Shown piece after piece: positions 23,295 to 62,774 of a DNA stretch of 64,000 nucleotides (positions are counted from its first letter, which is position 1; every line of letters begins with the position of its first letter). This stretch comes from a virus. Its lineage: Duplodnaviria; Heunggongvirae; Uroviricota; Caudoviricetes. Below the pieces are notes generated by a model that saw nothing but the letters and a program-made list of their open reading frames with translations, was not told the origin of the DNA and did not search any database. Location: positions 23,361-87,360 of the IMG/VR virus record IMGVR_UViG_3300005076_000001; one strand, given 5' to 3'. Made by a program: the position numbers and the translations under genes.

Positions 23295-23483
23295 TTAGGC
23301 AAACAAGCCAAGAATGCTACCGAGAGGGGCAAGAACAATACCTGCTGCTCGTGCAATCTGGAGTGTATCAAACAGAGGCAAGGCTTGAACAAATGCAACG
23401 ATGTTCATAATCCAACCAACAAAAGCCGCAATCCAGAGACCCACCACAACCAAACCAAAACCAGCACCAAACAGTTCTTTCAT
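23295..23483 (-). CDS. small membrane protein (2 TM)
   Basis: 62 aa hydrophobic ORF with RBS. Confidence 0.35.
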   Translation of the reverse strand: MKELFGAGFGLVVVGLWIAAFVGWIMNIVAFVQALPLFDTLQIARAAGIVLAPLGSILGLFA

Positions 23484-35798: not shown

Positions 35799-35837
35799 AT
35801 TGTCTCACAGATTTGAGAATTTGTCAAGCAATTATTG
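35799..35837 (-). promoter_or_regulatory. early promoter TTGACAAAT-N-TCTGTG family (minus strand) plus GCAATAATTGC palindrome
   Basis: minus-strand TTGACA (plus 35822-35827) N17 GACAAT; shares TTGACAAAT...TCTGTG with promoters at 41063 and 41966. Confidence 0.45.
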
Positions 35838-36614
35838 CATAATCATGTTGCCCTTGAAATCAGAAGGGACAATAAAAACTTTATTCTGACTCTTTGCCAA
35901 CTCCTTCATCACATCCAGCTGTTTATCTGCCAGCAGTTTACTATCCAAAGATTGAGAACGCACACGCAGAGTTTCCGCTTCGACTTTAGCCACTTCCAGT
36001 TCATTCTGAGCTTGCTTCTTACGGTTTTCAGAGGCAGCTACAGCACGAATACTATCTTCTACAGTTGCATCAGTGAGAATGTTGGTGATGTTCACACGCT
36101 CAACGATGATGGTGCCTTTGTCACTCTTGTCAAACTCTTTCTGCAAACTCTCTTTAATGAAAGCTTCCATTTCAGTGCGTTTGTCATTCAACTGCATACT
36201 CGGCACTTTAGCTACAGCTTCGTTAGCAGCAGAGCGAGCCACCTGTTCCACCAAGTTGTACGCTGGATAGCTGATGCTAGTCTCAGCGTCGTAGGCTGTC
36301 GAATTGCTGTATTTCACCACCAAATCAGCAACAGAGGCAGGGTTTACAGCGTAGTAAATGGTTACATCGAAGTCTTGCAGACGTAGGTTGTCGGCTGCTT
36401 TCGGCTTCAGATCAGCCAGTGTAACAGGGATTTGTTTCACAGTGTATTTGCGAACATCCGATGTAACAGAGGTGTAGAACCCTTGTTGTAGTTCTTGTTG
36501 CTCCACTTCACCGCTGAAGGTGGTGCGAACACCAACTTGACCAGTTTCCACAGAGCCACATGCAGCCAGAGACATTGCCACAACAACAGACATTACGATA
36601 GATTTGATTTTCAT
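35832..36614 (-). CDS. SPFH/Band-7 (flotillin/HflC-like) domain lipoprotein
   Basis: Signal peptide MKIKSIVMSVVVAMSLAAC with lipobox; SPFH-like core DFDVTIYYAVNPASVADLVVKY...; C-terminal coiled coil; strong RBS AAGGAGAGAAG. Confidence 0.65.
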   Translation of the reverse strand: MKIKSIVMSVVVAMSLAACGSVETGQVGVRTTFSGEVEQQELQQGFYTSVTSDVRKYTVKQIPVTLADLKPKAADNLRLQDFDVTIYYAVNPASVADLVVKYSNSTAYDAETSISYPAYNLVEQVARSAANEAVAKVPSMQLNDKRTEMEAFIKESLQKEFDKSDKGTIIVERVNITNILTDATVEDSIRAVAASENRKKQAQNELEVAKVEAETLRVRSQSLDSKLLADKQLDVMKELAKSQNKVFIVPSDFKGNMIMQ

Positions 36615-36624
36615 ACTTCTCTCC

Positions 36625-36813
36625 TTAATTAAAATTACCAACAAAAGACAACACAGCACAAACTACAGCACCTATAGCAAGAAGTAGAGAGATGGACAAC
36701 CCTTTCTTCCCAATTTCAATTTTCTCCCTCAAGCTTGTCTTGCGTAGAACATCATAACAGATGTACACAAGAACACAAGACATAAAGTAAAGAATAAGTG
36801 TTTTTGCAATCAT
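36625..36813 (-). CDS. small 2-TM membrane protein (NfeD-like partner candidate of SPFH gene)
   Basis: 62 aa, two hydrophobic helices; immediately upstream, same strand as SPFH gene. Confidence 0.4.
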   Translation of the reverse strand: MIAKTLILYFMSCVLVYICYDVLRKTSLREKIEIGKKGLSISLLLAIGAVVCAVLSFVGNFN

Positions 36814-42616: not shown

Positions 42617-43627
42617 TTACGCGTCTTTGTTCTTCAACAGATATGCGTTGCTAATTGCTTTAAAGCTGAAATCACTTGTCAGATGTTTGAACACCAACCC
42701 TTCACGCTTAACACCCTTGTTCATACCTTCGCCTTCGGCCATTTCCAAGAGTTGTTTTACGTCATGTACAAGAACGTATTTGGCGTTAAACACAGGTACA
42801 TGAGGAATACCAAGTTGCTTGCACAAAGCAGCACGCTCCTCTGGAAGCAAATACTGGCGCTTATCAATGTCGTAAACATCGTAAACAAACATGCACAGCT
42901 TGTCAACCTTCTCCCAATTACCTTGAATGTTTGTGTTCAGCATCTCACCTTGGATTGCAAGTTGACGCCCTGTGGAACGGATTTTCTCGTGCAAATTCTC
43001 TTGTTTAGCAATAATCCAGAATGCACTATCACCCTCTTGCAAATCTAGATTGCGACTGCACACACCTTCACGCCAAACATTATCTTCATTCACACTGTAC
43101 ACAGTGATGGAACTTCCGTCAAGTTTCAACGTAACCTCAAATTCTTCACCTTGCATTTGCTCGATAATACGGGACAAATTTTGAACACGTTCTTGGTCTG
43201 TCTTAGGGATGAATGATGGGAAATTCCCTCGTGCCAAACCTGCAAGCTGTGGAGAAATCGGTTTGTCCCACTTCTTGATACCCAGAATCTCGGCGACATC
43301 TGCGCCTTCTTCAAATACATAATCAGCGAAATCTAGAATACTCATTGGTAGCAATAATCCTTGGCTGACAACACCTCGCAGTTTCTTGGTGCGCAGACGA
43401 GCACCTTCTACACCTTCAAACTCTTTACCCTCAAACAAGAAAGAAGCAAGCTCTTTTGGCATCCAAGAATCAATCTCAAAATACACAGCCAAATCGCCTG
43501 CTTTAAACTCTCCCTTCTTAATTACGACATTCCAACCGCCAACGATAGCACACTCAATTGCATCAGCGTCTTTGATAGGTACAACGTCATCAATACGGCG
43601 TACAGTGGCAAGTTTGCGTTCACTCAT
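42617..43627 (-). CDS. ATP-dependent RNA ligase-like nucleotidyltransferase (N-terminal OB-like domain + KxDG NTase)
   Basis: Motif I EVTLKLDGSSITVY (K-x-D-G) resembling T4 Rnl1 KEDGSL; ~150 aa N-terminal domain as in DraRnl-type ligases; separate from the DNA ligase at 58932. Confidence 0.5.
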   Translation of the reverse strand: MSERKLATVRRIDDVVPIKDADAIECAIVGGWNVVIKKGEFKAGDLAVYFEIDSWMPKELASFLFEGKEFEGVEGARLRTKKLRGVVSQGLLLPMSILDFADYVFEEGADVAEILGIKKWDKPISPQLAGLARGNFPSFIPKTDQERVQNLSRIIEQMQGEEFEVTLKLDGSSITVYSVNEDNVWREGVCSRNLDLQEGDSAFWIIAKQENLHEKIRSTGRQLAIQGEMLNTNIQGNWEKVDKLCMFVYDVYDIDKRQYLLPEERAALCKQLGIPHVPVFNAKYVLVHDVKQLLEMAEGEGMNKGVKREGLVFKHLTSDFSFKAISNAYLLKNKDA

Positions 43628-43628
43628 T

Positions 43629-44021
43629 TCATTCTCCTTTACTTAAAATATAAACATCAGCTTGTGCCAACGAACACAAAGCTTCTTCCTTAATATGCAT
43701 ATATTGCATTGTATACAGCTTCATTGCATTACACAAGAACGAAGACATGCGAGAGCAAGCTTGGTGTATTTCTTCTTCGTTATTTCCGTTCAATGCCTCT
43801 ACAATGCGAAAACATTGTACAACAGACTCTGTTGGAATGTCAACAGATGGGTTGTCACTTGTTACATGCCTCAGCTCAAAGAACATCTTAGAAGCTGTCT
43901 TTCGTACAAACACAATCCGGAAAGAACATCCATTTAACACAATCCCTATGTCATTTGGAACATTGTGTGCTAATGAACACAACAACATTTTCAATAACTT
44001 TTCTGGAGAGCTTGTTTTCAT
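43629..44021 (-). CDS. hypothetical protein
   Basis: 130 aa ORF. Confidence 0.3.
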   Translation of the reverse strand: MKTSSPEKLLKMLLCSLAHNVPNDIGIVLNGCSFRIVFVRKTASKMFFELRHVTSDNPSVDIPTESVVQCFRIVEALNGNNEEEIHQACSRMSSFLCNAMKLYTMQYMHIKEEALCSLAQADVYILSKGE

Positions 44022-45257: not shown

Positions 45258-46568
45258 TTACACACGTTCCTTTACAGAGTAGCTCATCAGTGCGTGATAC
45301 GCAGCGGGAATGATATGCTCTTTCCATTTCTCAGCAAGACGTCTGGCATAAGCTTCTTTGCAACCACAATATGCTTCATGGGCTTCCTCTTGAGTTGGGA
45401 AGAATCCAAGGTATTCCCTACCTTTCTCTGTGTTGCAACGAGCAATGTACCCAACTGTCTCATTAGGTGTTTTAGGCTCAATGATGTGTACACCACGCAA
45501 GAACTTGGAGTCGCTCGGCTCGATGAGGAACTTGTTAACTTCTGATGGTAGGAAACAACAGCCTTCTGGCCCGTACACTTTGTTGTTAGGAATCAACAGG
45601 TCTTTGTCAAGTTCAAACTTAGGTAGTTGCCAGTTTGGTTGTGCCAAACCCCATTCAGCGAAGTTATGAAAATTCCACCACCTTTGGTCTACCTCTTTAT
45701 CCTCATAGCTTCTACCTGTTGGTTTTTGCAACTCAAACTCATTGTAACAGCGACTGAACATCCTTACCCAATAACCGTACATCCGCTCTGGTGCATGTTC
45801 ACCACGCTTGCTGCCGCGAGGAACAAACCTGCCAACACCAAAGAAACCTCTACCCTCTACAGACGGCTGCGTTGGTGGTTTAATACCGCCACTCAAAATA
45901 TTAGCAGAAGCATTCCAAGACTCGCTACCATCTTGCCATCGAATGAGAACGTCATGTGGCCCTTCGTAGCCAATAACTTCGCCTTCCCAACCGCTATTTG
46001 TTTTGAACTTTTGCCCAATACGGACAGCGCCTGTCGGATGCCTTACATTACCTTCTTTTAGGTTGTTCCAAGAAGTAACAACTTCACTTCCATCCTCAAA
46101 GGCAACTAGAATCTTTGTGGCGTTTACAAACTGTTTAACCACAACACTCCCGTAGTTGTTCGTAGAGAATACAGTACCAATCTCCGGTTTGCTCTTGGTT
46201 GGATGGCGATTGTGCCCTTGTCGAAGAACTGCAATGTTGGTAGTATGCTCCGTTCCATCGCTCAACCACTTAACACGCATCTCGGAGTTTTTCAATACTT
46301 CCACAATCTCAACAACATCACCGTCATGGCAAGGGAATTGTTGCCCAACGTAAGGCTTACCGAACGTAGGATGAAGTGGGCGCTGTTGTTTAATATAAGT
46401 GCCGGTGGTTGTCACAATAGCCCCGTCAAGGTCGAAACGAACGTCAATGTCCTTTCTTCCTCGGTATGCAACAATCTCAACTTCAAGCCCCTGTTTGTTT
46501 GTATAGCGATAGCCTACAAAATAGGCACCTTTCCTACTACCCATATACCCTCCCAATAAATAAGCCAA
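45258..46568 (-). CDS. HNH-type homing endonuclease with four N-terminal ~50 aa tandem repeats and C-terminal AP2 domain
   Basis: Repeats ending in (R/L)HP; nuclease-like WWNFHNFAEW...LDKDLLIPNNKVYGPEGCCFLPSEVN; AP2-like GREYLGFFPTQEEAHEAY; paralog of 33953..34585. Confidence 0.5.
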   Translation of the reverse strand: MAYLLGGYMGSRKGAYFVGYRYTNKQGLEVEIVAYRGRKDIDVRFDLDGAIVTTTGTYIKQQRPLHPTFGKPYVGQQFPCHDGDVVEIVEVLKNSEMRVKWLSDGTEHTTNIAVLRQGHNRHPTKSKPEIGTVFSTNNYGSVVVKQFVNATKILVAFEDGSEVVTSWNNLKEGNVRHPTGAVRIGQKFKTNSGWEGEVIGYEGPHDVLIRWQDGSESWNASANILSGGIKPPTQPSVEGRGFFGVGRFVPRGSKRGEHAPERMYGYWVRMFSRCYNEFELQKPTGRSYEDKEVDQRWWNFHNFAEWGLAQPNWQLPKFELDKDLLIPNNKVYGPEGCCFLPSEVNKFLIEPSDSKFLRGVHIIEPKTPNETVGYIARCNTEKGREYLGFFPTQEEAHEAYCGCKEAYARRLAEKWKEHIIPAAYHALMSYSVKERV

Positions 46569-51841: not shown

Positions 51842-52234
51842 TTACATACCATCAGGACGTGGCGTATAACTAGTTTTCCAGTCTACACCATTTGTATCGA
51901 TGTTAAAAGCTGTGGCGTACACCCATTCACCAGCATAACAACCATTGTGCAAGTCCAAAACTGGTGTTTTCTTGTAGAAATATACGTCGCCATACTTATC
52001 CATCGCAGCTCCAACAATGCTCTTACCCACCCACTCCCACGGAATGATGAGCTGTTTTTGCTTTGTGCGGTAAACAGCAGAAAAGTGAACAGCCAAAGTG
52101 TCAGCTTCTTCCCACACTTCGTAGTGACTGTGGTAGCTCTCAACATTTCCTTTTTGTTTTGCTTCAATAATCACCAGTTGCTCTTCCTTTGCCATGTCAC
52201 GGAATGCCAGCTTTTGTTCGTTCAATACAGTCAT
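51842..52234 (-). CDS. hypothetical protein
   Basis: 130 aa ORF. Confidence 0.35.
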   Translation of the reverse strand: MTVLNEQKLAFRDMAKEEQLVIIEAKQKGNVESYHSHYEVWEEADTLAVHFSAVYRTKQKQLIIPWEWVGKSIVGAAMDKYGDVYFYKKTPVLDLHNGCYAGEWVYATAFNIDTNGVDWKTSYTPRPDGM

Positions 52235-52247
52235 TTGTTATCTCCTT

Positions 52248-52450
52248 TTATGCACAATAACGTGGGAAATCGCTATTTTTCGTAGACAACACCACCTTAG
52301 CCATCTCTGCCAACTTCTTACTCTTGCTTTGGGCTACAAGACGAATGAAATCTTCGTAGAGCTGGTCTTCCATTCCGTGTGCAGCTTCGTAGTCGCCAGC
52401 ACATTCGTTAATGTCGTTTACACGTTTTTGAATTTGTTCCAATGTCATTT
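52248..52450 (-). CDS. hypothetical protein (likely start MTLEQIQ...)
   Basis: track ORF 52248..52625; upstream part is low-complexity. Confidence 0.3.
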
Positions 52451-52634
52451 CTATTTTTCCTTGTTTAGTGTTCTGTTGTCTATTTCTTGGCACACACGTT
52501 CGATACAATTCTGTCGGTTTGTGTGACAGTACCAACTTGTTTTGCAACTGCATTTGCCGCAGCAAAGCACGCCTCTTTCGTCTCAAAAGTAGTAGTAAAA
52601 GAAGTTGCACCACTGTATGTAGCAATCACTGTAA

Positions 52635-52820
52635 TCAAAATCCACATTTCTTTTCTCCTTTAGGTTTTAACTGTATGCCGCCCTCGACACAACGTATGTC
52701 AAATATAGCATTGATGTTCTTGCTTGTCAACTCTTTTACGTATTCTTCTGCCTCTTCCTTTGTATCTCTGTAGCCACACAACATTGTCTTAGGCAGACGT
52801 TGGCAGATGATGTATTTCAT
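52635..52820 (-). CDS. first gene of leftward early operon, hypothetical
   Basis: 61 aa, RBS ACAGGAGAACACCC; directly downstream of promoter/operator. Confidence 0.35.
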   Translation of the reverse strand: MKYIICQRLPKTMLCGYRDTKEEAEEYVKELTSKNINAIFDIRCVEGGIQLKPKGEKKCGF

Positions 52821-52840
52821 TGGGTGTTCTCCTGTTGTTT

Positions 52841-52895
52841 GTTAACATGTCCACGTACTCGTACACATGTTAACTTGCTTGTGAGGGTGTGTCAA
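52841..52895 (-). promoter_or_regulatory. leftward early promoter TTGACA-N17-TAACAT overlapped by perfect 10-bp inverted repeat operator
   Basis: minus-strand TTGACA (plus 52890-52895), TAACAT (plus 52867-52872); IR GTTAACATGT(52841-52850)-N14-ACATGTTAAC(52865-52874) covers -10 to +20. Confidence 0.5.
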
Positions 52896-53233
52896 GCAAA
52901 TTCTTCATGTGCAGATTGTCTCTAAGTTTGTGACAGATTTCTGCTACGCCCTCTTGACAAAACAGCATTCTTGTGAGACACTATGCTTAGTTGGACGTTT
53001 GGCCTACGTACAGGCACTGCCAAATTTTAGGGGGAAGGAAGCACAGACATGTGTTTGCTTCGGCAGTAGGTGTTGTCAGGAACCTCAGAGAATACGCTCA
53101 AGGAACAGGACACACGCTCTCTTTTCTTCATGGAATCTATAAAAATTCTATGGGGGATTAGGGGGTAGTGTGTCTGAATTTCCTAGAGAATATATCTATA
53201 ACATACTAACATACTAAGATACAGGAGATAGAA

Positions 53234-53920
53234 GTGATAAGTTGTAACGTATACATACTAACAGACAAGACAAACAAAGCAGTAAAGATAGGGATAACAA
53301 AGAAACATCCAGATGTACGTATCTCTACTATCAACAAAGAAGCAACGAAGTACAAGTTTGTTCTTCATAAGTTTGAAACAATGTCCACACCAAAGGCAAG
53401 GTGGGTAGAGAACAAGTTGCTTGATGCATTAGAGAAGATGGGTGGCGCTTGGGTTGAAGATGATGATTTTGGTGGTGTAACGGAAGTTGCTACACTTGAT
53501 GTAACCAATGTTGTGTTTGATGCTTGTGTCTCGTATCTAGACAATCTTCTCCTCACTCTGGCAGAACAAGAGTTCAAAGAACGAAGTTACACAGAACTAG
53601 AAAATGACAGCAGTGTTCTCAAAATTCCTCTGAATCTTCTTGGTGCAAAATACCTGCACAACCTTTTCACAGATGCTAAAATTCAACTAGACCTTACACA
53701 CAAGGTTTTGCTGTGCTTGCTAAAGGACGATGGTAACGTAGACCAATCCACACTTGCAGATGTTTGTGGGGTTAGCAGACACTCTGTTTTGCGTGCAATT
53801 TCTATGCTGTCCTCTTGTGGCATTGTCGAGGTTGTTAAGGTGCGAGCAAGCAATGGAGCCGTGTACAACAACTATGTGGTGCATGAAATTGATGGTGTAG
53901 CATTTGTAGCATACAAATAA
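53234..53920 (+). CDS. T5orf172 (GIY-YIG-like) domain + winged-helix DNA-binding protein
   Basis: GTG start with CAGGAGATAGAA RBS; N-terminal VYILTDKTNKAVKIGITKK; C-terminal wHTH LLKDDGNVDQSTLADVCGVSRHSVLRAISML. Confidence 0.45.
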   Translation: MISCNVYILTDKTNKAVKIGITKKHPDVRISTINKEATKYKFVLHKFETMSTPKARWVENKLLDALEKMGGAWVEDDDFGGVTEVATLDVTNVVFDACVSYLDNLLLTLAEQEFKERSYTELENDSSVLKIPLNLLGAKYLHNLFTDAKIQLDLTHKVLLCLLKDDGNVDQSTLADVCGVSRHSVLRAISMLSSCGIVEVVKVRASNGAVYNNYVVHEIDGVAFVAYK

Positions 53921-53933
53921 ATCCATTCTAGCC

Positions 53934-53962
53934 TTGACATGCCCTCTTCGGAGGGCTATTAT
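53934..53962 (+). promoter_or_regulatory. promoter TTGACA-N17-TATTAT with GCCCTC-TTCG-GAGGGC hairpin in spacer
   Basis: -35 53934-53939; -10 53957-53962; hairpin 53941-53956 may also terminate upstream gene. Confidence 0.35.
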
Positions 53963-53998
53963 CCGTATATAGACACTGACAACGTAAGGAGAAACCAA

Positions 53999-54637
53999 AT
54001 GAAATCTATCAACTTAGCCAACCTGAAAGAACAACGCTTTAACAAGCTGCAAGAAAGCCTCTGGCTCGATTACGAATCCTTAACCAAAGCAGGTGCAATT
54101 ATTGCTGGCGGCAGCTTGCGCACACTGATTGACAAAGAAGATGAAGTGTGCGACATTGATCTTTTCTTCAAAGATGAGGAAAGTATTGCTAACACTAAGA
54201 AATTGCTTGAAGACAACGAATACGTTTGTGTGTTCCAATGTCCTCTTGGCTACCTTTCCACTTATTACAAGTTCAGTGAGAAGATTGTTGGTGAACGCTT
54301 TGACGGAAGCCCTGAATACGAAGTGGTGAGTAAGGTGCAACTGATTACACGAGACTTGTATATTGATCTGGAACATGTTGTTTCGTCTTTTGATCTGATG
54401 CCATGTTGTGTTGCAATGGATGATGAACGTATTGTGTTTGCTGATAAATGGGTGAAGAGTGTCAAGAAGAAAATGCTCTACTTGAACAACCTTACCTACC
54501 CTGTTGCTACATTGAATCGAATTGACAAATACAAGCGCAAAGGCTACTATGCCAGTGAAGCATTTTATGTAAACATTATCACAACAATTCAGAGCAGCAG
54601 CTTTGACGGTGACAGAATGTCCTTGTACATCGACTGA
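53999..54637 (+). CDS. nucleotidyltransferase-fold protein (pol beta superfamily, minimal NTase)
   Basis: AGGSLRTLIDKEDEVCDIDLFF matches hG[GS]-x9-13-DhD NTase signature; ATG 53999 with AAGGAGAAACC RBS. Confidence 0.5.
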   Translation: MKSINLANLKEQRFNKLQESLWLDYESLTKAGAIIAGGSLRTLIDKEDEVCDIDLFFKDEESIANTKKLLEDNEYVCVFQCPLGYLSTYYKFSEKIVGERFDGSPEYEVVSKVQLITRDLYIDLEHVVSSFDLMPCCVAMDDERIVFADKWVKSVKKKMLYLNNLTYPVATLNRIDKYKRKGYYASEAFYVNIITTIQSSSFDGDRMSLYID

Positions 54638-54648
54638 GGAGAAATCAA

Positions 54649-54855
54649 ATGAATCATCCACCAATCACAAAAGACTATTTCCACATTGGCTTTGCAGAGA
54701 GTGATGTTGTTCTTGTCACGTTAGCTGATGGACAAAAGACAAAGGCACAATGGGTAGTGAATTACGAAATGGGGACAGGTGTTGTTAGTTGCGGTTGGAT
54801 GCATGAGTGTGGGCTACCGCTTAACAATGTTGTTTCTTGGGAGGAAAGTAAATGA
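54649..54855 (+). CDS. hypothetical protein
   Basis: 68 aa ORF. Confidence 0.3.
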   Translation: MNHPPITKDYFHIGFAESDVVLVTLADGQKTKAQWVVNYEMGTGVVSCGWMHECGLPLNNVVSWEESK

Positions 54856-55235
54856 ACACATTTGTCATAAACAAGAACAACATTGATGAAATATTTGGCA
54901 TGTGCTGTCTGTTCATCTCTCACCACGAAAAGAAGCTTGAACGTCTGAAGCATCAAAGCAACAGCCTGTCTAACATCAGCTTACGTTTCTGGCGTGTTCG
55001 TCTGGATTGTTGGAGCGGTAAGACACGAAACATTGCAACAGTAATGGAGAATGAGTTGTGTCAGTGGATGAAAGATAATGACAAGCTTTACAACCACCTC
55101 ATTGATGCTTTTCGCCTTGCAGAGAATGTTGTGTCTCTGTATTGCAAAGGGTATGAAGAATTTGAAGAAATACACGTAAACAGTGTTGACATGGAAATGG
55201 TGGTGTCGTATGCTTACAAACATGGAAATGAATGA
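54852..55235 (+). CDS. hypothetical protein
   Basis: 127 aa ORF. Confidence 0.3.
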   Translation: MNTFVINKNNIDEIFGMCCLFISHHEKKLERLKHQSNSLSNISLRFWRVRLDCWSGKTRNIATVMENELCQWMKDNDKLYNHLIDAFRLAENVVSLYCKGYEEFEEIHVNSVDMEMVVSYAYKHGNE

Positions 55236-55247
55236 AGGAGAAACAAA

Positions 55248-55466
55248 ATGCTAATTGACGAAACAAACTGGAAACAAGAGCTTGCAAAGCTGAAAGCAAA
55301 ACGTATTCTGATTGTAGAAGAAAAGAAGACACTACTCAGTACACCAGAGAAACAATGGGAACATGGTGTAAATCAAGTATATTGGCGTCAACTTCAGATA
55401 GAAGAACTTGACATTTCTATTGAAACAATAGAGAATGTGTTTGTACATAAACGCTGTTATATTTAG
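55248..55466 (+). CDS. hypothetical protein
   Basis: 72 aa ORF with GGAGAAAC RBS. Confidence 0.3.
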   Translation: MLIDETNWKQELAKLKAKRILIVEEKKTLLSTPEKQWEHGVNQVYWRQLQIEELDISIETIENVFVHKRCYI

Positions 55467-55477
55467 GAGAGAATAAA

Positions 55478-55912
55478 ATGAATGCAAGAGATATTGCTTG
55501 GGAATACCACAATGGTCAGATGTATGGAAACGCAAGCTACATACTGGGTCATGTTTGCGACGTTGTTGATAGGGTTGCTGGGGTAGGAAACCACCTACAT
55601 GTAGCCATTGCCTACCTTCACGACACTATCGAAGATACCTCACTGACGTTGGAAAAGCTACGCAATCTCCTGAAAGAGGACGAAAGCGATAGTGAGTATG
55701 TAGATGCAGTGGTGGATGCCGTTGACGCCTTGACAAAACGTGAAGGGGAAGATTATACTGCGTATATGTCCCGTGTAATGGAAAACAAACATGCGGCTTT
55801 TGTAAAATATTACGACAGTGAATCCAACATGTATGCTTGCATTCATGACGGCGATAATAGACGAGCACAGAAATATCTGAAGAACATGTGTATGTTGAGA
55901 GATTTTGTTTAA
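55478..55912 (+). CDS. HD-domain small alarmone hydrolase (RelA/SpoT-hydrolase / Mesh1-like)
   Basis: EYHNGQ...ILGHVCDV...VAIAYLHDTIEDT...AVDALTK matches (p)ppGpp hydrolase HD motif (H..GQ...H...ALLHDvvEDT). Confidence 0.65.
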   Translation: MNARDIAWEYHNGQMYGNASYILGHVCDVVDRVAGVGNHLHVAIAYLHDTIEDTSLTLEKLRNLLKEDESDSEYVDAVVDAVDALTKREGEDYTAYMSRVMENKHAAFVKYYDSESNMYACIHDGDNRRAQKYLKNMCMLRDFV

Positions 55913-56067
55913 GGGGGCAAGCGTGGACATTGACAAGCGTGAGCGAGATGCTAAAATCTTGACAGGTGGTTTTGTTTGCATGGTGGCATTAGGTTTTGTT
56001 GTATTTATTGCCACTGTACTACTTGTACCTCTTCTATTCTGGCTAGCAAATTAAAGGAGACGATAAC

Positions 56068-56361
56068 ATGAACAAGCAATTTAAAGAGTTTGCTGATATT
56101 GTAAAGACCTACGCACAACCAACTAAGGAGAAGCCCATGAACACACAATCTAGTGACAAACCATTTGTCGGAGCATTCTTTGTCATTTCTTGTGTTGGAG
56201 AGAATGAAGAACGCATTAGCCAATTCTTCTCTCACAAAGAGATGGCTCGTGCATTCATTGAAAGCTGTGACGTTGTAGAGAATGAAATGTTGTACATTGA
56301 TGTTGTAAGAGATGAAGAACATAAGCAATTCTTGCTTGACAACATTGAGAAGATAAAGTAA
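56068..56361 (+). CDS. hypothetical protein
   Basis: 97 aa ORF with AAAGGAGACG RBS. Confidence 0.3.
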   Translation: MNKQFKEFADIVKTYAQPTKEKPMNTQSSDKPFVGAFFVISCVGENEERISQFFSHKEMARAFIESCDVVENEMLYIDVVRDEEHKQFLLDNIEKIK

Positions 56362-56395
56362 TATACAAACACATTGAACGTAGGGAGAGAAAGAA

Positions 56396-57097
56396 ATGAA
56401 ACAACAGAAATTCTTTGTTGGTGATAAAATAGAAAGAACAGACAACTTTATGCAGGAGTTTGGTGGCGAACGTGGTGTTGCTTACACTGTAAAACATGTT
56501 AGTGCCGACGGGTGGTTTATTGTGGTTACGGATGGTTATTCTGTATCAGGAAACCGTTATCCTGAATACTACACCCTCGTAGAACGTGCATGGCAAGAGA
56601 ATGACGGCACACAAGGAGCTGACGAAGACACGTACATTGAAGTCTTGTTCAATGACGCAACAACGCCGTCTATTGTTACAGTTGAGAAAGAGTGGTGGGA
56701 AAATACGAAGGGTATGGTGAAGTGGCGTATTGCCGATGAGTATGAAAACCCAAAAGAGTTTTTTGAGCAGGAACAATCGGCAAATTCTGTGTGTCCACCA
56801 GAAGCACAGCCTCCGGTGTGTGCCATTCCCCCTGCACATGTTGCTCTTGGGGAAGAGCTTGTTGCTGTTGACGTGCAAAAGAAAAACAAATACACTCGTG
56901 AAATCAAGCCGAATGTGTTTGTTGATGTGTATGATGTTCTTCGTGCTTTTAATGTAACAGACCCTTGTCTGAGCCACTTGGCGAAAAAGGCACTTGCAGC
57001 AGGGCAACGTCATCATAAAGACCGCCTGACAGACTTGCAAGACATTAAGGCTAGTATTGAACGTGCAATTGAAATGCACATTGAATGGGAGAAGTGA
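56396..57097 (+). CDS. hypothetical protein
   Basis: 233 aa ORF. Confidence 0.35.
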   Translation: MKQQKFFVGDKIERTDNFMQEFGGERGVAYTVKHVSADGWFIVVTDGYSVSGNRYPEYYTLVERAWQENDGTQGADEDTYIEVLFNDATTPSIVTVEKEWWENTKGMVKWRIADEYENPKEFFEQEQSANSVCPPEAQPPVCAIPPAHVALGEELVAVDVQKKNKYTREIKPNVFVDVYDVLRAFNVTDPCLSHLAKKALAAGQRHHKDRLTDLQDIKASIERAIEMHIEWEK

Positions 57098-57098
57098 A

Positions 57099-57380
57099 AT
57101 GAACACACTTATTTCACAGCTAGAGTACATGGCTTGGAAGCTTACATGGGCTGACAGCAAATGGAAATGTAACATGACAGGTGTAGAATTTACGCTCCCT
57201 ACGGAAGTGAGGAAGGGTGATTTCTACGAATTCGGTAAGAGTTATGTTGATGTTGGAACAGAAAGCTATTCACGTTTTGGAGGTAGTCCTGTTCTTGTAG
57301 AAGCTCCGCACAGGCAGCTTGCTGAAACAATTCGAGAATATGTTGAACAACTGAAAGGAAAGAAAGATGACAACACTTGA
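57099..57380 (+). CDS. hypothetical protein
   Basis: ATG 57099 with GGGAGAAG RBS (track starts 57057). Confidence 0.3.
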   Translation: MNTLISQLEYMAWKLTWADSKWKCNMTGVEFTLPTEVRKGDFYEFGKSYVDVGTESYSRFGGSPVLVEAPHRQLAETIREYVEQLKGKKDDNT

Positions 57381-57672
57381 AGATTTGAAGAAAAAGCTGG
57401 AAGAGGCACAGAGTAATGTCGCTTCTCTTGAGAAAGAGATTGCTTCTAAAACACCACATTTTTGTGGGAAGTTTGACTTCTTGTATCTACTGCCACACCG
57501 CGCTGAGATTGTGCGTCGTTGGTGTGAGAAACATCAACTGCCTTATTCTATTGATGGGGTTTCAGCTTATGGGTTTGCTGGAGGTTATATCAGCATGGAC
57601 GTTTATGTAGATGGCGCTTTTACGTCAGCCCGTCTTCGTGATTTGGCAGATAAGATGGAGGAGAATGTATGA
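57367..57672 (+). CDS. hypothetical protein
   Basis: 101 aa ORF. Confidence 0.3.
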   Translation: MTTLEDLKKKLEEAQSNVASLEKEIASKTPHFCGKFDFLYLLPHRAEIVRRWCEKHQLPYSIDGVSAYGFAGGYISMDVYVDGAFTSARLRDLADKMEENV

Positions 57673-58409
57673 CACAACGTACCGAACAAATTAAAGTGGA
57701 GTTCATTGACAAGATGGGCAGTGACAAGCGCATTTGTAACGCTGCTCGCGTTTCATTTGCCAAGTGGGATGATACTGAAGAAATCACTGAGGCAGATAAG
57801 GGATTGCTTCGTTATCTTGCTACAGGTTTGCCAAAAGCTGAACGTGACGATTGGGAGAAACGTGCAAAAGCACACACTCATTTCACACCTTTCTGCCATG
57901 CAACACTATCTGTTCGTGTAACTGTTCCTATCTTCGTTGCACGACAATTGCACAAACATGTAATCGGTTTGGTGATTAACGAAGAGTCTCGTCGTTACAT
58001 TACAAACGATGTTAAGCTTTTTATTCCAGATGTTGTGCATAAAGCCCCAGCACATGCAAAGCAAGGTGCAAGTGATGAAGAGCACACTGCTATTGTAGTG
58101 AAAGAGGCTAAGTTTGGAGGTGATGATCTGACAGCAAAACAGCTTATTGAACAGCAAACAAATGCTGCTGTCGATGTGTACGAGGCTCTGCTAGACGCAG
58201 GAGTTGCACCAGAAGAAGCACGTATGGTATTGCCTTTGAATACAATGGTGACGTGGATTTGGACAGGCTCTCTTCTGGCTTTCAACCGTGTTTATCAACA
58301 ACGTATTGACAGCCATGCACAGAAGACAGGTACGCAAGAGTTTGCCGAGAAGCTTGGTACAATTCTCTATGAATACTTTCCGCATAGTATGGAAGCACTA
58401 AACAATTAG
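57669..58409 (+). CDS. thyX: flavin-dependent thymidylate synthase
   Basis: 246 aa; ThyX signature HKHVIGLVINEESRRY (RHR-x7-S-x-RY type); C-terminal MVTWIWTGSLLAFNR. Confidence 0.75.
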   Translation: MTQRTEQIKVEFIDKMGSDKRICNAARVSFAKWDDTEEITEADKGLLRYLATGLPKAERDDWEKRAKAHTHFTPFCHATLSVRVTVPIFVARQLHKHVIGLVINEESRRYITNDVKLFIPDVVHKAPAHAKQGASDEEHTAIVVKEAKFGGDDLTAKQLIEQQTNAAVDVYEALLDAGVAPEEARMVLPLNTMVTWIWTGSLLAFNRVYQQRIDSHAQKTGTQEFAEKLGTILYEYFPHSMEALNN

Positions 58410-58420
58410 AAACACACATG

Positions 58421-58450
58421 AGAGCATACATTTCTGTATGCTCTTTTTGT
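58421..58450 (+). terminator. rho-independent terminator (AGAGCATACA hairpin family)
   Basis: AGAGCATACA-tttc-TGTATGCTCT then TTTTTGTTTTTG. Confidence 0.65.
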
Positions 58451-58458
58451 TTTTGTGC

Positions 58459-58487
58459 TTGACAACATGCTTGCTGTGGATTATATT
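58459..58487 (+). promoter_or_regulatory. sigma70 promoter TTGACA-N17-TATATT
   Basis: -35 58459-58464; -10 58482-58487. Confidence 0.5.
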
Positions 58488-58519
58488 AGCTACATCAACA
58501 ACGAAGCAGGAGAAAGAAC

Positions 58520-58765
58520 ATGAAACAATTTCCGTACGCACAGCAAATCATTTGGGAGAATGATGTTGAGCAAATTGAATGGGAAGAGCAGTATGGGAAG
58601 TGCTGGAAATCGACTCTTTACGTTGCCAAAACCCATAACACGAAAGACGTTGTTGTAGGCGGGTTCTCCAGCAGGAATACAATTGGGGATGAGATTTTAG
58701 TGTTCATGACACCTAACGGTAGACAGCTTGAAGTAAGTAAACTCTTGTGCTGGGCAAAGCTATGA
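58520..58765 (+). CDS. hypothetical protein
   Basis: 81 aa ORF. Confidence 0.3.
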   Translation: MKQFPYAQQIIWENDVEQIEWEEQYGKCWKSTLYVAKTHNTKDVVVGGFSSRNTIGDEILVFMTPNGRQLEVSKLLCWAKL

Positions 58766-61040: not shown

Positions 61041-61390
61041 TGCCTCTGACAACACAAGATTTTCTGTATAAAGGGTACAAGAAATTCAAGTCTGTACTTA
61101 ACAATGCTGATTTTGGTTTGCAACGCGTTGTGCGTGATGAGGAAGGGAATAAGAAATACTTCCTAACCGTGTATGCATACGACTTCAGCACATCACAACA
61201 TCAAGCACTAGCACAGCGAGGGATTGTGTTCTCTTACGAGGTGTGTTTGTATACGGAAGATTTTGCACAAGAAGATGGTTACACTACGTTCCATGTAACA
61301 GGTAGTGTTGAAGACATTGAAACATTTGAAAAGTGGATTGAACACATGTACAATAAGCTGAATTGCGTTATTGATGTTCATAACAACTAA
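61037..61390 (+). CDS. hypothetical protein
   Basis: 117 aa ORF, ATGA overlap. Confidence 0.3.
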   Translation: MMPLTTQDFLYKGYKKFKSVLNNADFGLQRVVRDEEGNKKYFLTVYAYDFSTSQHQALAQRGIVFSYEVCLYTEDFAQEDGYTTFHVTGSVEDIETFEKWIEHMYNKLNCVIDVHNN

Positions 61391-61462
61391 GCCGTAAAAA
61401 CAATAGGGGTATATATGTACATATATACATTTGTTTGCCCCTGTTTTATTTAAGGAGAGAAC

Positions 61463-61627
61463 ATGCTATCATTGTTCATACTATCGTGCTTGTGCCTGTT
61501 GTGTGGACTGCTTGTCTCTCGTCTAGGAGATGACAGCAAGAGTGTTCCATTGGCTCTGCTAGGTTTTGCAGCCCTCATTGTAGGGTTTACAGGTGTGATG
61601 GTGTCGTTAGGGTATGTTGCTGTTTAA
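61463..61627 (+). CDS. small membrane protein (54 aa)
   Basis: hydrophobic ORF with TAAGGAGAGAAC RBS, not in track. Confidence 0.3.
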   Translation: MLSLFILSCLCLLCGLLVSRLGDDSKSVPLALLGFAALIVGFTGVMVSLGYVAV

Positions 61628-61639
61628 AGGAGAAAGAGA

Positions 61640-62350
61640 ATGAATAAAATTGAAGTGTTTGAATGTCCTACGTGCAACACGCTGCATCGCACAGAGAAAG
61701 GTGTGCAAGGGTGCATGAAGCTGCACAAAAAGGCAGAAGATAAGCGTGCTGAAGCTCTTGAGCAGAAAAAGCTAGAACAAGAAATCCGCAACATTCCAGC
61801 ACGAGAGGCAGAAAGCTTGGAGCAATTTCTTGACATGGTGTTGGAGCTACAACATAAGGTGCCACACCTTGTTGAAGAAGGGCATGTTACAGCTTACAAA
61901 ATCACTCGCAACCCTTGGCGCTGGGGTGTTGGTGAAGTGGGGCTGGATGTTACGTTTTGGTATAAGAACAAGAAAAGAACTGGTTGGTTTTCCCCGTCAA
62001 CAGTGATGGATTTCTTCGTTGGTTTTAGAACAGGTAGTGGAAGTGGTAACGGAGAAGATGAAATGTCTCTCCAATGTTATTTCGACATTTCTGTTATTGA
62101 TAAAATGCGAGATAAAATCCAAAAAGAATTGGAGAATAAAGAAGAGCTTTCTGCATTTATTCAGCATGTGCAAGAAGAGAATAACAAAGCATTTTATAAT
62201 AGCCCACATATTGTCGAATTAACTACAAAGATTAAAGCGTTAAATACAGAGCTAAATAGGCTTCGTAATGAACTATTTACTGTTCCGACAGAGAATAAAA
62301 TAAACGAGGAGCGGTTGAAATATACGTGGCAATATATTGATGCCCTTTAA
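61640..62350 (+). CDS. hypothetical protein with N-terminal Zn ribbon and coiled coil
   Basis: CPTCNTLH...GCMKLH then KAEDKRAEALEQKKLEQE. Confidence 0.35.
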   Translation: MNKIEVFECPTCNTLHRTEKGVQGCMKLHKKAEDKRAEALEQKKLEQEIRNIPAREAESLEQFLDMVLELQHKVPHLVEEGHVTAYKITRNPWRWGVGEVGLDVTFWYKNKKRTGWFSPSTVMDFFVGFRTGSGSGNGEDEMSLQCYFDISVIDKMRDKIQKELENKEELSAFIQHVQEENNKAFYNSPHIVELTTKIKALNTELNRLRNELFTVPTENKINEERLKYTWQYIDAL

Positions 62351-62774
62351 CTTGTTTTAAAAACCATCCCCGCCTAATTAAGCCCCGCCTTATTTAGGCT
62401 GGGGCATTTCTTATTATGTGAGCGCCAGCACACAACCCTACAACTGACGTATGTTCTACGAACGTGCAGACATTTCCCTAGAAATCGAGGACATTTGTTT
62501 CTAACACTCTTGGAAAGCTATTTACCAAACTACTCAAGGAGTTTATTATACGAGGGCTTTGGAATGGTATTTGTGTTTAAATGGGAGAGGAATCGAGGAA
62601 TAAATTCTGGTGAAGTCTTAAAATGCTTTTCGTAAATAGACAGAGAAATGTAAAACTACTCGACCGACGTGTTTATACAAAATGCTGACGCTGGTTTTGC
62701 TTTTTCGCGCCAGTTCCGTCGTGATTTCTTCCTATAAAACCTTGGAATGGTTTTTGCATTTTTATATAGGCGTA

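Follow-up and report, generated by a model that had tools for sequence, protein, structure and literature searches.

Phage-encoded proteins that interfere with, or could interfere with, nucleotide-based and other host defences have been described in several tailed phages. Gad2 (Gabija anti-defence 2), a protein of 400 amino acids (aa) from Bacillus phage SPbetaL7, protects its phage from Gabija, as seen from a knockout that became Gabija-sensitive; its AlphaFold model contains a nucleotidyltransferase (NTase) domain, and Gabija is the sole target system so far demonstrated for the family (bioRxiv 10.1101/2023.05.01.538930). Aph1 (adenosine 3'-pyrophosphohydrolase 1; PDB 7SMG), a (p)ppApp hydrolase from a Bacteroides caccae prophage, carries a six-residue signature (D24, R96, D116, R119, K133 and Y134), of which D24 and R119 set the adenine specificity (PMC10083569). 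The stand-alone small alarmone hydrolases (SAHs) of phages PVP-SE1 (PbcSpo) and SSU5 (PaSpo) neutralise all five toxSAS toxins tested in co-expression assays (PMC7229694), and some SAHs restore tRNA that has been pyrophosphorylated at its CCA end by FaRel2. Relatives of Gad2 and of the SAHs were found close together in a 64,000-nucleotide stretch of a tailed-phage genome (IMG/VR record IMGVR_UViG_3300005076_000001, positions 23,361 to 87,360; hereafter the window, with positions numbered from its first letter), where six tightly packed plus-strand open reading frames (ORFs) at 53234-55912 encode proteins of 228, 232 (as listed), 68, 127, 72 and 144 aa. An original prediction had taken the NTase, the small ORFs and the HD-domain hydrolase of this cluster for an arrangement not previously described.

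The cluster is best explained as the beginning of a block of early/accessory genes that reads rightward in the genome of a virulent tailed phage. It is probably a mosaic early accessory region made up of three independent, individually swappable cassettes, namely a likely homing nuclease (a T5orf172-winged helix protein), a putative anti-defence, Gad2-like NTase and an SAH. All six ORFs were present as originally listed, except that the start of the Gad2-like gene was moved from 53939 to 53999. Shine-Dalgarno sequences were seen ahead of the ORFs (AGGAGA before GTG 53234 and ATG 55478, and a repeated AAGGAGAAAC(C/A)AAATG at 53986, 54636 and 55235) and five of the six had homologues in metagenomic relatives, the exception being the T5orf172 gene (none in any fetched locus), so that most of them are conserved genes and not chance ORFs.

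Linkage of the genes in related phages

In the linkage test, hidden Markov models (HMMs) of both enzyme families were compared with the six-frame ORFs of all fetched loci, those from IMG/VR seeded on the HD gene extending up to 6 kb on each side. The Gad2-like gene occurred in none of the 80 loci seeded on the HD gene (0/80), and the HD gene in none of the 12 loci seeded on the Gad2-like gene (0/12). Vibrio phages vB_CoeS_P1 and VPMCC14 carry both genes, tens of kb apart. The closest relative, locus L006, encodes a Gad2-like protein 93% identical to that of the window and lacks the T5orf172 gene, orf68 and the HD gene; its gene order is an unrelated 438-aa gene (in the position of the T5orf172 gene), the Gad2-like gene, a 46-aa ORF and homologues of orf127, orf72, orf97 and orf233. 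When the two DNA sequences were aligned, near identity extended to the stop codon of orf72, after which L006 went straight into the core of orf97 (a clean junction), the surplus of the window at this point being approximately 670 bp and made up of the HD gene, orf49 and extra N-terminal sequence of orf97. Gene content differed in another contig of the same metagenome, L011, where orf68 and the HD gene (93% identical) are accompanied by an additional gene of 71 aa. Altogether, L011, L012 and L013 carry the HD gene, whereas L006, L001 and L008-L010 lack it; the gene behaves as an insertion/deletion cassette. Other genes occupied the space before ThyX in relatives with 60-67% identical Gad2-like proteins.

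A single functional module uniting the NTase with the small ORFs and the HD protein, in which, for example, a nucleotide made or modified by the NTase is processed by the HD enzyme or the two enzymes jointly counter nucleotide-signalling immunity, would agree with genes that are closely spaced neighbours on one strand and are served by similar ribosome-binding sites (RBSs), and with two enzymes that both act on nucleotides. It is nevertheless very unlikely, given the loss of the HD gene from L006 next to a nearly unchanged Gad2-like protein, the co-localisation counts of zero in both directions, the distance between the genes in the Vibrio phages, promoter-like sites that seem to be separate for the different genes, and the lack of any PADLOC or signalling-related match. 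The NTase-small-ORF-HD unit of the original prediction found no support in these comparisons (orf68 and the T5orf172 gene, too, are absent from L006), and its pieces are not new, both enzyme families (Gad2/PF26128 and phage SAHs) having been described before. Conservation of the NTase-HD arrangement was not observed: the genes are adjacent independent cassettes, and the evidence says that they form no new multi-gene system. Current concepts are left unchanged by this outcome, the main value of which lies in a proposed new system having been shown to be an adjacency of known, independently mobile genes.

The first cassette, the T5orf172-winged helix gene (53234-53920, plus strand, GTG start, 228 aa), had both of its proposed domains confirmed by Pfam models scoring above their gathering cut-offs: T5orf172 at residues 6-69 (27.9 bits, cut-off 20, E-value 3.5e-6) and the winged helix HTH_24 at residues 152-199 (23.2 bits, cut-off 21.9, E-value 5.2e-5). 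The protein also matched phrog_681 'endonuclease' (E-value 1.1e-9), and gave no tblastn match among 50,697 phage records. Homology between the window and L006 begins exactly at the promoter-like site downstream of this gene (see below), and the gene upstream of the Gad2-like gene is therefore regarded as a replaceable cassette. The order of its domains, a GIY-YIG-superfamily nuclease followed by a helix-turn-helix (HTH), is, we infer, the layout of a free-standing homing endonuclease, and the product is probably a homing-endonuclease-like nuclease or DNA binder occupying a replaceable slot, and probably a selfish, homing-type one. Elsewhere in the window, an HNH endonuclease gene (45258-46568, minus strand) adjoins the primase-helicase gene, and related contig L001 (4135-6792) encodes a DnaB-type helicase with an intein (Hom_end_hint/LAGLIDADG matches); together these suggest that selfish nucleases are frequent in this phage lineage.

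Directly 3' of the Gad2-like gene in L008-L010 a Lar restriction-alleviation gene was found (for example, L008 1912-2121), and in L007 (4873-7183) genes for NAPRTase and PRPP (phosphoribosyl pyrophosphate) synthetase were located just across the divergent region. Both observations fit the locus being an anti-defence hot spot, and the locus marks a small accessory region of anti-defence type in an uncultivated phage lineage.

The Gad2-like nucleotidyltransferase

The Gad2-like gene lies on the plus strand and was listed at 53939-54637 (232 aa). Its most likely start is the ATG at 53999, giving a corrected extent of 53999-54637 (212 aa), because all homologues (24/24; 193-223 aa) start there, a strong RBS (AAGGAGAAACCAAATG, at 53986) precedes this codon, and the listed ATG at 53939 falls inside a conserved promoter-like element. 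The GS...DxD motif quoted in the original prediction was present (AGGSLRTLIDKEDEVCDIDLFF), and residues G37, G38, R41, D52, D54 and D132 were invariant in 20 homologous sequences. An AlphaFold2 (AF2) model of high confidence (pLDDT 92.4) had a Pol-beta-type NTase fold. The earlier description as a pol-beta-type minimal nucleotidyltransferase was thus right as to motif and fold and wrong as to family: no Pfam or NCBIfam family was matched at an E-value of 0.1 or below, including NTP_transf_2, the model proposed for the check, and the minimal-NTase models, and the protein instead belongs to Gad2/PF26128. PADLOC gave no match, phrog_1614 'nucleotidyltransferase' was matched weakly (E-value 1.5e-5), and sequence searches against the PDB produced chance-level matches only.

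Assignment to the Gad2 family came from precomputed annotation, in which PF26128 (named 'Gad2') is placed on a 100%-identical protein from an 87,360-bp JGI contig (P0006) and on all 24 homologues, and from profile comparison. Goe14, an SPbeta-like phage, encodes a protein of 397 aa that the NTase matched and that is itself 91.9% identical to annotated Gad2 (SPbetaL6, SPbetaL7), and alignment of the window-family profile with the Goe14 protein by hhalign (probability 98.2%, E-value 3.4e-14) paired window residues 15-192 with Gad2 residues 8-171. The catalytic residues aligned with AGGT...DVD...FDF of Gad2, and the GG...DxD...FD and TYPVA...KY motifs were common to the two proteins. By this homology the 212-aa NTase is predicted to be a Gad2-family protein of reduced length that corresponds to the N-terminal, catalytic half of Gad2. 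A literature search for 'PF26128' returned nothing. One candidate for the other half, a small neighbouring ORF, was rejected for want of similarity. Matches confined to the NTase portion, the first ~196 residues of Gad2, were common in other phages (PVP-SE1-like, GAP32-like and CBB-like), and Streptococcus thermophilus phages were also among the matches. In Salmonella phage PVP-SE1 (L015 11281-12697, corresponding to 61280-62696 of the record) the Gad2-like region is split in the annotation between two neighbouring hypothetical genes, gp78 and gp79, directly beside a large tRNA gene array; this is also the phage whose SAH reportedly neutralises toxSAS toxins.

Among known structures, the best Foldseek matches of the NTase model were class II CCA-adding enzymes (for example, PDB 3H39 and 3WFQ; E-value ~3e-6, TMq 0.57-0.59), and similarity extended to phage proteins of uncharacterised role and to giant-virus proteins labelled 'tRNA nucleotidyltransferase/poly(A) polymerase'. 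A CCA-adding enzyme as such was rejected on motifs (RRD and EDxxR absent) and on length, which is half that expected. A broader idea is that the NTase repairs or tails tRNA 3' ends and forms, with the SAH and an RNA ligase, a loose tRNA-repair toolkit against tRNA-targeting defences. These structural matches, the tRNA genes beside the PVP-SE1 homologue, the ability of SAHs to de-pyrophosphorylate tRNA and the presence of an RNA ligase gene at 42617-43627 all speak for such a toolkit, but it is distinctly improbable in view of the missing tRNA-binding body and tail domains (212 aa against ~400), a window in which a tRNA scan found no tRNA genes, an NTase and an SAH that are unlinked, and a sole demonstrated family phenotype directed at Gabija, a DNA-targeting system.

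Upstream of the corrected start, directly 5' of the gene, a plus-strand promoter-like site at 53934-53962 (TTGACA-17-TATTAT) matched the sigma-70-like consensus at 11 of 12 positions, a consensus match only, and its spacer held a perfect GC-rich hairpin (GCCCTC-TTCG-GAGGGC). The position of the site is conserved: in L006, L007 and L001, as in the window, one of its type occurs 58-65 nt before the Gad2-like start codon. In L006 the hairpin, too, has been kept together with the site, although the upstream genes differ. The hairpin within the spacer may act as a terminator that overlaps the promoter, or may have a regulatory function. Over all 64 kb, 12 plus-strand matches to TTGACA-N(16-18)-TAnnnT were counted, half of them (6/12) within 53.9-56.4 kb (at 53934, 54522, 55186, 55730, 55930 and 56336), several lying 30-110 nt upstream of ORF starts; in the region, 21 promoter-like sites were found versus 11.7 +/- 3.6 in shuffled sequences. 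As consensus matches, these clustered sites suggest several short early transcription units.

The Gad2-like NTase is the conserved member of the block and, judged by its homology, most likely an early counter-defence enzyme. A Gad2 relative reduced to the catalytic domain and equipped with a conserved promoter-like site of its own is mildly new, and at 212 aa it could be used as a minimal system for studying how Gad2 acts.

The small alarmone hydrolase

The last ORF of the cluster (ORF6, 55478-55912, plus strand, ATG start, 144 aa) contained the quoted signature (H..GQ...H...AIAYLHDTIEDT) and matched phrog_990 (E-value 4.7e-29). Taken by itself it scored below the gathering threshold of Pfam HD_4 (PF13328; 15.5 bits against a cut-off of 27.2, E-value 0.015), the HMM originally proposed for its confirmation, and it had no PADLOC match and nothing significant in NCBIfam. 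A profile search recovered 1,376 relatives at an E-value of 1e-5 or below, and among the best 120 of these 1,376 most were 135-170 aa long and many carried PF13328; an exhaustive search gave 3,401 clusters (50% identity) at an E-value of 0.001 or below. The best sequence match in the PDB was 7smg, '(p)ppApp hydrolase' (E-value 2.9e-7). The AF2 model (pLDDT 96.9) matched Aph1 first in Foldseek (7SMG, TM-score 0.78, root-mean-square deviation ~2.5 Å, 31% identity), followed by MESH1, PaSAH (Pseudomonas SAH), RelH and Rel/SpoT hydrolase domains, and all of the 40 best PDB matches were SAHs or Rel/SpoT hydrolase domains. Residues H11, H25, H48-D49, E52-D53, D113 and N117 were invariant in 77 homologues and aligned to the catalytic residues H19, H33, H53-D54, E57-D58, D110 and N114 of Aph1. 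The proposed RelA/SpoT-type alarmone hydrolase was in this way borne out by signature, phrog_990 match and SAH fold, and ORF6 is, as predicted from sequence and model, a single-domain SAH of the minimal, Aph1-like form with its catalytic residues intact.

The Aph1-type signature itself was not retained. At the six positions the window SAH has Y16, R99, Y119, I122, K132 and Y133, with three of the six residues kept and all three near-base residues changed. Across 227 relatives, the positions of Aph1 D24, D116 and R119 held the full D/D/R triad in 41, and Tyr occupied the D24 position in 166; the window protein (Y/Y/I) belongs to this large Tyr-type branch, a membership that is mildly new. These changes bear on the notion that the hydrolase protects against a (p)ppApp-synthetase toxin encoded by its own phage, in the way that Aph1 confers immunity to the MuF-fused toxin Apk2. 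Its appeal is that the closest structural relative is Aph1, which is also phage-encoded. In the window, however, the portal gene is followed by an S49 protease gene and not by a MuF toxin fusion, the motif E[IVLFM]Q[IVLM]R[TS] of RelA/SpoT homologue (RSH) synthetases occurs in no frame of the 64 kb (a crude test), and the specificity triad of Aph1 is absent. With neither MuF fusion nor synthetase motif in the window, which covers 64 kb of a contig presumed to be 87 kb long, immunity to a phage-borne toxin was rejected and is considered very improbable.

Host takeover provides another role, in which the hydrolase degrades host (p)ppGpp and so keeps transcription, translation and nucleotide synthesis running. 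This role has been proposed for phage SAHs by authors of phage genome papers (PMC12846349), and would suit an enzyme of the RelA/SpoT hydrolase superfamily whose catalytic residues are intact and whose gene shares a block with genes of nucleotide metabolism (ThyX at 57669-58409; ribonucleotide reductase). It is weakened by Aph1, the closest characterised enzyme, not hydrolysing (p)ppGpp (PMC10083569), by replacement of the guanine-contacting residues of Rel (R43/R44/S45 in TtRel) with Y16/G17/N18, and by the gene being dispensable in a close relative; because of this dispensability, an accessory role fits better than core takeover, which we consider plausible but unlikely.

Returning to the mosaic of independent cassettes, the activities and anti-defence roles within it, all of which we infer, would be as follows. 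The Gad2-like NTase would be made early from its own conserved promoter-like site, and would transfer a nucleotide onto a protein, nucleic-acid or small-molecule target, so disabling a host defence. The SAH would cleave pyrophosphate from the 3' position of (p)ppApp or (p)ppGpp, from tRNA CCA ends that have been pyrophosphorylated, or from both, an activity that may relieve toxSAS-type abortive infection or stringent-response shutdown. The counter-defence theme of the original prediction is thereby kept in part, through Gad2 homology and the neutralisation of toxSAS toxins by phage SAHs (PMC7229694), while its connections to CBASS, Thoeris and cyclic nucleotides found no backing, PADLOC giving no match for either enzyme. 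A more specific variant holds that the Tyr-type SAH branch (mostly metagenomic/phage) acts on a substrate not yet assigned to the minimal form, such as tRNA whose 3' end has been pyrophosphorylated by toxSAS of the CapRel/FaRel2 type, and that the short Gad2 NTase acts on nucleic-acid 3' ends as well. We rate this a long shot; if true, the two enzymes would make a tRNA-end rescue toolkit and give a hint at the mechanism of Gad2.

Several points weigh against the mosaic anti-defence interpretation as a whole. The anti-Gabija evidence concerns the 400-aa Gad2, with which the short forms of ~200 aa are placed by homology; the C-terminal half of Gad2 is missing from the 212-aa NTase, and no ORF of the window matches Gad2 residues 200-397. 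The local Pfam scan of the NTase gave no hit, so that its PF26128 membership rests on the precomputed annotation and profile comparison described above, and a 2026 review lists the mechanism of Gad2 as still unknown (PMC12904381). The linkage sample on the Gad2-like side was small (12 loci, several of them truncated), and the promoter calls are consensus matches only. The substrate of the SAH is not predictable, because the base-specifying residues of Aph1 are replaced, the conclusion also reached by the authors of PMC12846349 for the SAH of their own phage.

Neighbouring genes and described counterparts

Three ORFs of unassigned function separate the NTase and SAH genes, all on the plus strand: orf68 (54649-54855, 68 aa), orf127 (54852-55235, 127 aa) and orf72 (55248-55466, 72 aa). 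None had a significant match in PADLOC or NCBIfam scans, and Pfam and PHROG were likewise without a match for orf68 and without a significant one for orf127. The RBSs of orf68 and orf72 were GAGGAGAAATCAAATG and AAGGAGAAACAAAATG, respectively. Presence of orf68 was variable (a 90% identical homologue in L011, none in L006), homologues of orf127 were found in L006 and L011 (62%) and L013 (47%), and those of orf72 in L006, L011 and L013 (49-54%), orf72 being kept with or without the HD gene. Downstream of the HD gene, a putative orf49 (55905-56054, plus strand), which may start at a GTG at ~55922, contains the hydrophobic stretch GGFVCMVALGFVVFIATVLLVPLLFWLAN; no homologue was present in L011, L012 or L006, in which the orf97 homologue directly follows the HD gene or orf72, and orf49 seems peculiar to this genome, possibly encoding a small protein that crosses the membrane once. 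Further on, orf233 (56396-57097, plus strand) has a C-terminal domain of ~75 residues that matched several function-unassigned PHROGs (phrog_2452, E-value 4e-30); this domain is kept in L008-L010 despite a differing N-terminal part, which makes the protein modular-looking. The ThyX gene named above, identified by Pfam, lies just downstream of the six-ORF cluster.

The window encodes a portal, S49 protease, major head protein and tape measure on the plus strand, and a ribonucleotide reductase, DNA polymerase A, primase-helicase, HNH endonuclease and RNA ligase on the minus strand. No near-identical DNA to 53000-58500 was found among the 50,697 phage records, and the best match of the DNA polymerase (47% identity) was to a Pseudomonas phage. 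The divergent gene blocks are separated by 413 bp (52821-53233) holding no ORF of at least 60 aa and no Rfam match, with a short inverted repeat at 52841-52874 and ACATACTAA(C/G)A direct repeats just 5' of the T5orf172 start; over 52000-58600, Rfam returned just one chance-level snoRNA match (E-value 0.099). The RNA ligase gene (42617-43627, minus strand; phrog_968, E-value 2e-98) lies among the replication genes, a position suggesting that the phage may possess RNA or tRNA repair capacity, and is adjoined by a 130-aa ORF (43629-44021) with no Pfam match. Also in the replication-side block is a gene for an SPFH/Band 7 domain protein (35832-36659, minus strand; Pfam E-value 3.7e-18), an unusual phage cargo.

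Compared with free-standing GIY-YIG homing endonucleases (I-TevI/Seg type) and T5orf172 proteins, the product of the first ORF shares an N-terminal GIY-YIG-superfamily domain combined with a C-terminal, DNA-binding HTH, as well as a presence that varies among close relatives; it differs in having no detectable homologue in phage isolates. With class II CCA-adding enzymes and poly(A) polymerases the NTase has in common the head-domain fold and the GGxxR...DxD motif A, while it differs in lacking RRD (motif B), EDxxR (motif D) and the body and tail tRNA-binding domains, in size (212 aa against 350-450 aa) and in sequence (11-16% identity).

The SAH resembles Aph1 as a minimal single-domain SAH of ~145 aa and best structural match, with all HD catalytic residues common to both and R96, K133 and Y134 of Aph1 conserved as R99, K132 and Y133, whereas D24, D116 and R119 correspond to Y16, Y119 and I122 and the gene adjoins neither a toxin nor a Tis1-like immunity gene. 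To PbcSpo of PVP-SE1 and PaSpo of SSU5 it shows no direct BLAST-level similarity (no Salmonella phage among 49 tblastn matches); like them, it is a single HD-domain RSH hydrolase encoded by a phage, those two phages being lytic. The NTase, finally, is shorter than Gad2 (212 against 400 aa) and 26% identical to it; like Gad2, it has a homologous NTase domain with GG...DxD...D and TYPVA-type motifs, and is a phage-encoded accessory gene in a variable locus.

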